Source: Lachnospiraceae bacterium (GTDB taxonomy: Bacteria > Bacillota > Clostridia > Lachnospirales > Lachnospiraceae). Taken from it: a DNA stretch of 64,000 nt. This document shows positions 12,844 to 13,835 of the stretch, one piece after another. Below the pieces are notes generated by a model. That model saw only the letters and a program-made list of their open reading frames with translations, had not been told where the DNA came from and did not search any database. Position numbers and translations under genes: made by a program. The first letter of the stretch is position 1; every line of letters starts with the position of its first letter. The DNA lies in the NCBI GenBank assembly GCA_017555455.1, contig JAFZGJ010000195.1, forward strand, positions 87,284 through 151,283, read 5' to 3'.

Positions 12844-13835
12844 GTCGGAGTGGCGTAATAGGCAGGCGCACCAGTCTTAGTGAGTTTACAATTAAAATGG
12901 TATATCGAATCTAAAATTTTTGGGTAAGGTTGACCATTTTCTTATTATTAATTTTAATATATAATAAGGAGATGAATATTTTATGGCAAGAGATGATATT
13001 TTAGAAAGAAAAAATGATATACTCCAATGGATTGAAGAGGGGTAGTCTAAAAGTTTTATTTGTAAACAATTACAATGTAAACCAGAAACATTAAATTCTT
13101 ATTTAAAAAAGATGGATATTTTTTATGAAGGAAATTAGGGTTTAAAGGGAAAAGCTAGAGATAATTTATATAAAACCGCGAAAGAATATGTTGAACAAAA
13201 TTCGCATATTAGTTCTCATCGTTTAAGAGAAAAATTAATAAAGGATGGAATTAAAGAATATCGTTGTGAAAAATGTGGATTATCTATTTGGTTAAATCAG
13301 CCAATTCCTTTAGAATTGCATCATATCGACAAGAATCATTATAATAATAATTTTGATAATTTACAAATTTTATGTCCAAATTGTCATGCATTAGAAAACA
13401 ACAACAATAATAATAACAATAAATCTGATGAAGTTAAGCTTAAACCTAAAAAAAAGATAATTAAGCAAAAATCAAAAGAAAATATTGAAAGAAAAAAACA
13501 TTATTGTATTGATTGTGGCAAAGAAATTAGTCGAAATGCATTGAGATGTAAAAGTTGTGCAGCAAAAGAATTTAATAAAGATTCTCAAAAACACTCTCTT
13601 TCAAGAGATGAATTGAAAAATTTGATTCGTACAACTTCTTTTGTCCAAATTGGGGAACAATTTGGAGTAACAGATAATGCAATTCGCAAATGGTGTGATA
13701 CTTATAATTTACCTAGAACAAAAAAAGAAATAAACTCTTTTACAGATGAAGAATGGCTACTAATTTAATTGTAAATTGACTAAACTGGCGTGAAGTAATA
13801 GTAGCGTGCGGGTTCGAGTCCCGCCTCCGACACCA
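12844..13835 (+). tRNA. split type-II tRNA (5' part 12844-12880, 3' part 13779-13835 with CCA) interrupted in anticodon loop by ~900 nt carrying HNH ORF; anticodon region CTTAG|..|AA (candidate Leu-UAG, uncertain)
   Basis: acceptor GTCGGAG/CTCCGAC perfect, D-arm, AC stem CCAGT/ACTGG, T-arm GCGGGTTCGAGTCCCGC. Confidence 0.5.
12983..13768 (+). CDS. HNH homing endonuclease (inside tRNA intervening sequence), 2 in-frame TAG (13043, 13136)
   Basis: ELHHID...LCPNCH motif; RBS AAGGAG. Confidence 0.6.

Follow-up and report, generated by a model that had tools for sequence, protein, structure and literature searches.

The subject of this work is a phage transfer RNA (tRNA) gene, tRNA-Leu(UAG), that is interrupted in its anticodon loop by a sequence encoding an HNH endonuclease. 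The gene lies in a stretch of 64,000 nucleotides (nt) from contig JAFZGJ010000195.1 of the GenBank assembly GCA_017555455.1 (Lachnospiraceae bacterium; positions 87,284 to 151,283, forward strand), which is hereafter called the window and numbered from its first letter. The window contains about 30% guanine plus cytosine, all of its genes are on the + strand, and its relatives are phage genomes of about 150 kb from gut metagenomes. Using ARAGORN in intron mode, positions 12844-13835 were identified as a single class-II tRNA-Leu(UAG) gene with a 901-nt insert (the program's own anticodon call, tat, being arbitrary). The 5' exon (12844..12880, + strand) comprises the acceptor 5' strand, the D-arm, the 5' strand of the anticodon stem and loop nucleotides 32-36 (CTTAG); the intervening sequence (12881..13781, + strand) starts with TGAG and ends with TTGACT; and the 3' exon (13782..13835, + strand) comprises A37 and A38, the 3' strand of the anticodon stem, a variable arm of 19 nt, the T-arm, the acceptor 3' strand, and the discriminator A73 followed by an encoded CCA. 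The stems formed by these exons are GTCGGAG/CTCCGAC (acceptor), CCAGT/ACTGG (anticodon) and GCGGG-TTCGAGT-CCCGC (T-arm). When joined in silico (...CCAGUCUUAG-AAACUGG...; the 30-mer across the joined exons is GCGCACCAGTCTTAGAAACTGGCGTGAAGT), the exons give a tRNA-Leu(tag) with a complete cloverleaf, and tRNA scans of the window found no second tRNA-Leu(UAG). A previous inspection of the letters alone, here called the sequence-only reading, had already recognized a tRNA interrupted in the anticodon loop and all of these structural pieces; its 5' fragment (12844-12880) agrees with ours, while its 3' fragment, begun at 13779, took in three bases of the insert.

The boundaries of the insert were fixed with close relatives of the locus (designated L and a number), which were retrieved through exact matches to the proteins of small genes nearby. 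In L003:6406-6490 and L007:9821-9905, the syntenic position, between almost identical flanks, holds a tRNA-Leu(TAG) that is uninterrupted and has the loop CTTAGAA. The exons of L008 are identical to those of L007 and enclose a homologous 563-nt insert with a 152-codon HNH open reading frame (ORF), an arrangement that is shared, L007 exons included, by L005, L006, L009 and L012, while L004 and L013 match the window allele. The comparison of L007 with L008 leaves one possible insertion point, G36|A37 (CTTAG|...|AA), and since intron-less and insert-bearing alleles have identical exons, the junction is placed there; the insertion after anticodon position 36 and the candidate anticodon UAG (Leu) proposed in the sequence-only reading are thereby confirmed. 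Two further window-type alleles occupy site 36/37 of tRNA-Leu(TAG) in unrelated exon backgrounds (L040, L041), and in an unrelated phage (L080) the tRNA-Leu(TAG) is uninterrupted and its anticodon arm is identical. Near-identical genomes therefore differ in the presence or absence of the insert at one exact site, as is characteristic of homing elements. The window and L003 agree in their flanks, acceptor stem and T-arm, whereas the D-arm, anticodon stem and variable arm, adjacent to the insert, are replaced; judging from these alignments, the exon sequence beside the insert is shown to have been co-converted, a spread at the DNA level like that of a homing element. No exact match to either tRNA half or to the upstream flank was obtained in IMG/VR, a collection that does not contain this phage, and the 11 matches there to the pattern CTTAGTGAGCAYATTT were all chance occurrences in coding DNA.

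Joined in silico, the exons of the four divergent insert-bearing alleles (window, L008, L040 and L041) fold in every case into a perfect tRNA-Leu cloverleaf; their acceptor stems are of three kinds. The exon stem pairs are 20/20 paired in all four alleles, and 11 of them show compensatory changes. Of these, three acceptor-stem and three anticodon-stem pairs span the insert, and this covariation rules out that the halves are remnants of two different tRNAs. The ends of the insert follow the consensus CUUAG|UGAG...(G/A)UUGACU|AA, with the first four and last six insert bases invariant in the four alleles, in the window despite its non-coding 3' end. In the predicted precursor, U33 pairs with A38, U34 with A37, and A35 and G36 with the last two insert bases; U1 of the insert pairs with base n-2, G2 lies opposite G(n-3), and a helix of about 8 to 14 base pairs (bp) follows. 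In the window, the 5' strand of this terminal helix, defined from sequence, covariation and fold, is located at 12881..12896 (+ strand; U1, the mismatched G2, and the 14 nt A12883-A12896), and the 3' strand with the invariant tail GACT at 13764..13781 (+ strand; helix 13764-13777), where it overlaps the stop codon of the ORF (13766-13768). The helix that follows the mismatch is UUUACAAUUAAA in the window and CACAUU... in the shorter alleles; its sequence is wholly different and its pairing is kept.

Taken as a whole, these pairs extend the anticodon stem into a rod of about 24 bp (5 + 5 + 14 bp), whose only irregularities are the bulged C32 and the G2xG mismatch. Across the alleles, 96.9% of the cells of the rod are paired and 10 pairs are changed on both sides, as compared with 27-46% in slid controls, and a mini-precursor of the window folds at -72.4 kcal/mol (z = -5.96) into this rod together with the acceptor and T arms. 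The two junctions are two base pairs apart in the rod, giving a 2-bp stagger with 3' overhangs; this modelled geometry is compatible with RNase III, unlike that of the tRNA-Gln, tRNA-Asp and tRNA-Phe inserts described below. Past the first 4-7 nt, the 5' leader of the insert shows no conservation between the window allele and the short ones.

The ORF of the insert (12983..13768, + strand, 261 codons) was assigned as an HNH homing endonuclease by Pfam, PHROG and alignment, as the sequence-only reading had anticipated. The predicted protein is composed of an N-terminal helix-turn-helix, an HNH domain, and a C-terminal zinc ribbon with helix-turn-helix. Pfam gives helix-turn-helix matches and an HNH score of 19.5 bits, just below the cutoff of 21.4, whereas PHROG HNH endonuclease families match with a best value of 5.6e-28, and the HH...N...H/CPNCH motifs are kept in the protein alignment. 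The HNH proteins of insert-bearing alleles are only about 60% identical, and that of the window is similar to hegA F-TflIV of T5/BF23. The two in-frame TAG codons that had also been spotted before (13043-13045 and 13136-13138) both align with Gln in homologs, so the ORF is intact under TAG=Gln, and it is presumably expressed only when a suppressor tRNA is present; the same argument has been made for a recoded intron endonuclease (Borges et al.). The tRNA array of the window (12465-21241) includes a suppressor tRNA with a CUA anticodon (17680-17754). Late-looking genes have up to 9 in-frame TAGs (47780-49498 and 49524-51866 are among those with 7-9) and early-looking genes have none; together with the suppressor tRNA, this distribution indicates that TAG is recoded to Gln, mainly in late or structural genes. 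The spacers between the tRNAs repeatedly contain perfect TTGACA-17-TATAAT promoters, and a promoter scan revealed none that was convincing for the HNH gene inside the insert.

Group I introns with homing endonucleases are known from cyanobacterial tRNA-Leu(UAA) and tRNA-fMet (I-Ssp6803I), Azoarcus tRNA-Ile and Agrobacterium tRNA-Arg, and the sequence-only reading had compared the present layout with them, while remarking that the parts outside the ORF seemed too small for a group I core. The remark was correct and the comparison was not borne out. The non-coding part of the window insert amounts to 115 nt (102 nt 5' of the ORF and 13 nt 3'), and the smallest known group I introns measure about 200 nt; in the short alleles (L008/L040/L041), the ORF extends to the final base of the insert and ends on the junction, its stop codon TAA consisting of that base plus A37 and A38. 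Group I introns follow a 5' exon that ends in U (the U.G pair in P1) and themselves end in omega-G, whereas in all four alleles the 5' exon ends in G and the insert in U. The Rfam covariance scan gave no group I or group II intron match on the insert at the gathering threshold or at E<=10. Because RF00028 also missed genuine group I introns in control loci, only a custom covariance model, R1, counts as evidence; it was built from four genuine group I introns carrying homologous HNH genes in phage tRNA-Leu(UAA), three of them with the ORF deleted. R1 recovered every control at 60-160 bits, including both halves around ORFs, and found new examples; on 12780-13900 with filters off its best score was 3.6 bits, and the window as a whole gave no match. 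Group I rules, as applied in the sequence-only reading, would place the splice at CT|...G|ACTAA and yield the anticodon ACU; this is excluded by the intron-less alleles, which also contradict group II or spliceosome-like boundaries (GUGAG...AC, junction shifted by 1 nt; anticodon UAU). Rfam small ribozyme families gave no match on the insert even at E<=10, and the cleavage-site rules of hammerhead, hairpin, twister and pistol ribozymes, checked by eye, do not fit the junctions. As far as sequence analysis goes, membership in group I is rejected, and the resemblance appears to be one of ancestry.

This ancestry could be followed through 64 homologous HNH loci (42 from a metagenome scan and 22 from IMG/VR), nearly all of which lie in phage tRNA arrays, beside or inside tRNA-Leu. 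Five arrangements were found: a free-standing gene immediately upstream of, or overlapping, an intact tRNA-Leu(TAG), which in L018 and L092 is accompanied by the dead 5' remnant of another tRNA-Leu further upstream; a gene immediately downstream of tRNA-Leu(TAG); a complete tRNA-Leu(TAG) in frame within the HNH ORF (L015/L016/L017:2483-3313, with the tRNA at 2951-3035); a gene within genuine group I introns of tRNA-Leu(UAA), inserted at U34|A35 (L029-L033 and about ten metagenome loci); and the window type, at 36/37 of tRNA-Leu(TAG). A hidden complete tRNA overlapping the end of the ORF, as in L018, is not present in the window. The short alleles share two segments with the group I introns: their insert start, UGAGCAC, matches the guide sequence and the start of P2, and the ORF ends with ...UCUAAAUGUGU-UGACU in the short alleles versus ...UCUAAAUGUGU-AGAGACUA (J6/7-P7) in the group I introns. 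The insert is most readily understood as an endonuclease cassette that departed from its ribozyme or survived the loss of it, probably descending from the HNH gene of a tRNA-Leu(UAA) group I intron with P3-P9 lost. Two side observations belong to this family of loci: in L015-L017, the embedded tRNA sits between the nuclease domain and the C-terminal DNA-binding domain, and the ORF, with 6 TAGs, reads through it; and the suppressor tRNA(CUA) of another phage (L033:3523-3791) is interrupted by a small group I intron, about 190 nt long and devoid of an ORF, which scores 141 bits with R1 and is not detected by the Rfam group I model.

The tRNA-Leu is not the only interrupted gene of the array. The tRNA-Tyr(GTA) of the window (15023-15207), the only one in the array and one that standard ARAGORN and Rfam runs missed, is split at U35|A36 by an ORF-less insert of 102 nt (15060-15161) with a 7-bp terminal helix (ATTGGGT/ACCCAAT), an adjacent T-arm-like hairpin of 5 bp and 7 nt, and TCTA as its 4-nt tail. 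Its size rules out a group I intron, and it has the features of a tRNA-like mini-element. ORF-less inserts in the anticodon loops of related phages are mini-tRNAs that run exactly from nucleotide 1 to N-C-C-A (or CUA/CCU); they interrupt Tyr, Glu, Thr, Ile and Lys tRNAs (L005:11932-12135 and 12793-12933; L003:6821-6977; L016:3-151 and 3847-3979), and include one of 109 nt in the tRNA-Tyr of L005, one of 66 nt in its tRNA-Glu (Rfam tRNA, 43.9 bits) and a complete nested tRNA in the tRNA-Thr of L003. Since they begin exactly at nucleotide 1, their 5' junction is predicted to be a canonical RNase P site. Two sets of tRNA-Tyr exons, from the two sub-lineages and each from a sole tRNA-Tyr gene, have fully compensated D-stems (GCGA/TCGC versus GTAG/CTAC), which argues that the interrupted tRNAs are kept under selection, so that a pathway that cuts and joins them should exist. 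The L003 contig stops at 8462 with ...GGCGGACTGTA, precisely at the 5' boundary of the tRNA-Tyr intron, a position suggesting that the assembly broke because variants with and without the insert coexisted in the sample.

A third set of inserts, of 455-789 nt and nearly all ORF, was found in tRNA-Gln (L005:14945-15808), tRNA-Asp (L017:4126-4657) and tRNA-Phe (L031:2669-3214). That of tRNA-Gln has 789 nt, of which fewer than 40 are non-coding, and its ORF matches PF11645 (PD-(D/E)XK), a family that we take to include I-Ssp6803I; for the Asp and Phe ORFs, a resemblance to it was judged by eye alone. The terminal helices of these inserts (9-12 bp) pair with anticodon-loop bases, and the inserts have no room for a ribozyme. 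The junction stagger is 2 in Leu, 3 in Gln, 1 in Asp and -3 in Phe, so a single RNase III-like rule of a 2-nt stagger for all endonuclease inserts was discarded, as it fits Leu only.

Genes that could act in trans on such precursors are grouped in an RNA-repair-like cluster at 36-44.5 kb of the window (36045-44551), in which the following were identified. An ATP-dependent RNA ligase (37793..39223, + strand) is a candidate factor with matches to PF09414 (28 bits, cutoff 27) and, over its full length, to PHROG 968 (4.6e-61); a sequence search of the PDB with it gave no match. The second candidate factor is a P-loop kinase similar to polynucleotide kinase (43505..44008, + strand; Pfam AAA_33, 1.9e-19; PHROG 505, 1.5e-25), and three metallophosphoesterases with Metallophos matches lie at 36045-36830, 42300-42977 and 44009-44551, the last two flanking the kinase. 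The cluster also contains a Thg1-like 3'-5' nucleotidyltransferase, of a family that repairs tRNA 5' ends (40402..41244, + strand; PF04446, 1.1e-29; PHROG 4717, 8.6e-83), a NADAR protein (39216-39665) and an RNase T-like exonuclease (41301-42167).

With no self-splicing RNA core in the insert, the tRNA, if it still works, must be repaired by proteins. We therefore favour, tentatively and with somewhat less than even confidence, the reading that the insert is a ribozyme-less intron: cellular RNases would cut at the base of the rod, and the phage ligase would seal the tRNA again. Protein endonucleases would cut the rod at both junctions; the stagger with 2-nt 3' overhangs would correspond to an RNase III product, and equally to what RNase P would produce by cutting at the 5' base of each helix, either enzyme leaving 3'-OH and 5'-P ends. 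The nicked anticodon loop (CUUAG-OH + pAA) would then be sealed by the phage RNA ligase, the kinase and phosphatases helping if needed, and the HNH protein would be made late, from unspliced precursor, since translation of its two TAG codons depends on the suppressor tRNA of the phage. In support of splicing we count the matched, covarying exons, the invariant paired insert ends, the covarying and stably folding rod, the similar end pairing of the Gln, Asp and Phe inserts, the ORF-less introns, and the presence of the ligase, kinase, phosphoesterases and Thg1-like protein. The wider proposal, that a clade of gut phages runs protein-only tRNA splicing, with cellular RNases (RNase P, RNase III or another) cutting and the phage ligase, kinase and phosphatase rejoining, is one that we hold with slightly greater reserve; such a pathway would cover both the endonuclease cassettes and the mini-tRNA-like elements in anticodon loops.

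Several points weigh against this reading. We know of no protein-only tRNA splicing in bacteria or phages, and no junction endonuclease was identified in the window. Since the stagger differs among the Leu, Gln, Asp and Phe inserts, one double-strand RNase geometry cannot explain them all, and as the stop codon of the short alleles needs A37 and A38, excision there would be expected to leave a non-stop messenger RNA (mRNA). Large phages often carry RNA-repair clusters for purposes other than splicing, for example to counteract anticodon nucleases. Finally, covariation of the halves does not by itself prove current function, since homing could be recent, and the intact exons could reflect just that.

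The main alternative, which we consider less likely, is that the insertion is never spliced. A free-standing-type HNH gene, itself the degenerate remains of a group I intron, would have inactivated a dispensable tRNA-Leu at its own target site, and the rod would only release or stabilize the endonuclease mRNA from a polycistronic tRNA precursor, resembling the intervening sequences (IVSs) that RNase III excises from 23S ribosomal RNA (rRNA). The lack of a ribozyme, the descent from a group I intron with its core lost, the dependence of the short-allele stop codon on the 3' exon and the inconsistent cut geometry would all be expected under it; moreover, most homologs are free-standing beside an intact tRNA-Leu(TAG), the resident gene surviving only as a dead 5' remnant in L018 and L092, where function is kept by duplication and not by splicing. 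It does not account well, however, for exon halves that are perfectly matched and covary in four lineages, for inserts that all fall inside the 7-nt anticodon loop, or for invariant ends that pair with exon bases, as mRNA release alone needs no such pairing; nor does it suit a window with no second tRNA-Leu(UAG), or ORF-less tRNA-like introns, which have no endonuclease drive, in sole-copy genes with compensated exons.

That the box UUAG|UGAG / UUGACU|AA and the 5' leader of about 100 nt form a new self-splicing or self-cleaving RNA is improbable: termini that stay invariant between HNH proteins only about 60% identical, and a strongly stabilized fold, would suit a catalytic RNA, but the leader is unconserved past its first 4-7 nt, no Rfam ribozyme matches at E<=10, the Gln insert has fewer than 40 non-coding nt, and no known small ribozyme suits the junction dinucleotides. 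It is barely conceivable that the insert is a canonical group I intron in which a homing endonuclease is embedded, since homologous HNH genes in genuine tRNA-Leu(UAA) introns and a start resembling guide sequence and P2 are set against an exon ending in G, an insert ending in U, R1 scores of at most 3.6 bits versus 60-160, 115 non-coding nt, and a rule-based splice contradicted by the intron-less alleles.

To our knowledge, all bacterial and phage tRNA introns characterized so far are self-splicing group I introns, and the splicing of tRNA by enzymes is considered a trait of archaea and eukaryotes. The insert shares with tRNA group I introns its position in the anticodon loop, a homing endonuclease ORF, a presence/absence polymorphism and homologous HNH genes (L029-L033); it differs from them in having no P3-P9 core, U(-1) or omega-G, in its site (36/37 in Leu(UAG) versus 34/35 in Leu(UAA)) and in that the ORF fills the insert in the short alleles. 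The IVSs of 23S rRNA, some of which carry an ORF, are excised by RNase III without re-ligation of the fragments, and the fragmented rRNA works. As in such IVSs, the insert replaces a hairpin loop and has no ribozyme, and its terminal inverted repeats extend the native hairpin stem into a double-stranded RNA rod of at least 20 bp that covaries among alleles; unlike an rRNA, a tRNA nicked in the anticodon loop cannot decode, so ligation is required here. Archaeal and eukaryal introns are recognized at a bulge-helix-bulge, two 3-nt bulges separated by a 4-bp helix, and spliced by an endonuclease and a ligase. A bulge-helix-bulge intron was rejected here, as the junctions lie in a continuous helix and neither has a bulge. 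The proposed use of a protein endonuclease and an RNA ligase, with an anticodon paired to the intron, is nevertheless like archaeal and eukaryal splicing and like T4 Pnkp/Rnl1 repair, and like T4 this phage encodes a ligase, a kinase and phosphatases; unlike in archaea and eukaryotes, the insert position varies from 33/34 to 36/37 among tRNAs, and no EndA-like protein was seen among the 30 window ORFs scanned against Pfam. In T5/BF23, homologous HNH genes (F-TflI/II/IV, hegA) also reside in tRNA arrays, but between the tRNAs, whereas here the gene lies inside one.

A further parallel, by description, is found in Lak megaphages, gut phages that are TAG-recoded and have tRNA arrays; for these, the available text of the original article reports "enigmatic" tRNA introns, including one in tRNA-Tyr(GTA) and a tRNA nested in tRNA-Thr(TGT), lying in anticodon loops and unclassifiable by Rfam (Devoto et al., 2019; PMC6784885). 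A recoded phage, an anticodon-loop insert and no Rfam class are common to both, as far as that text describes the Lak introns, and the Tyr and nested Thr phenomena it reports recur here in the tRNA-Tyr of the window and the tRNA-Thr of L003. The genomes described here, of about 150 kb and probably of a Clostridia host, are unlike those of Lak phages in these respects. That same text (PMC6784885) does not mention any tRNA insert that carries an endonuclease, nor does it put forward a structure or mechanism, and we found no later explanation of the enigmatic Lak introns in the literature. The locus and its related inserts thus constitute a testable case: the inserts are unable to self-splice yet look maintained, alleles that lack the insert serve as natural controls, the junction is defined, the precursor structure covaries, and the same genome encodes a candidate ligase. 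If splicing takes place, it would explain the enigmatic introns of Lak phages, would show how a homing endonuclease can outlive its ribozyme, and would give phage tRNA-repair genes a second, constitutive role as a splicing ligase; if it does not, homing endonucleases would kill phage tRNA genes while leaving both halves intact, which matters for phage tRNA annotation.

Further observations were made in the surroundings of the locus. A dockerin-bearing protein of the window and one match in a metagenome-assembled genome of Acutalibacteraceae hint at a Clostridia host. ORFs resembling GIY-YIG homing endonucleases were found in the window (56055-56807 and 61476-62444) and in the arrays of relatives (L003:7163-7660; L006:10873-11499); as those of the arrays differ between near-identical genomes, they mark the tRNA array as a place of frequent turnover of mobile endonucleases. 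Directly upstream of tRNA-Gln, the window has a sub-threshold match to the Y RNA-like YrlA family (17087-17200; 34.8 bits, E = 1e-4), and similar ones lie upstream of tRNA-Gln at L005:14749-14872 and L033:1531-1640. An 817-aa protein with a major-vault-protein shoulder and repeat domains (32692-35145; PF11978, 1e-14; PF17795), which is unusual for a phage, and an SPFH/flotillin-like protein (44559-46016) are also encoded. Lastly, a borderline tRNA-like sequence (15455-15527; RF00005, 30 bits, no ARAGORN call) and a short structured-looking stretch (15290-15360) each stand behind their own perfect TTGACA-17-TATAAT promoter, at 15396 and 15220, respectively.

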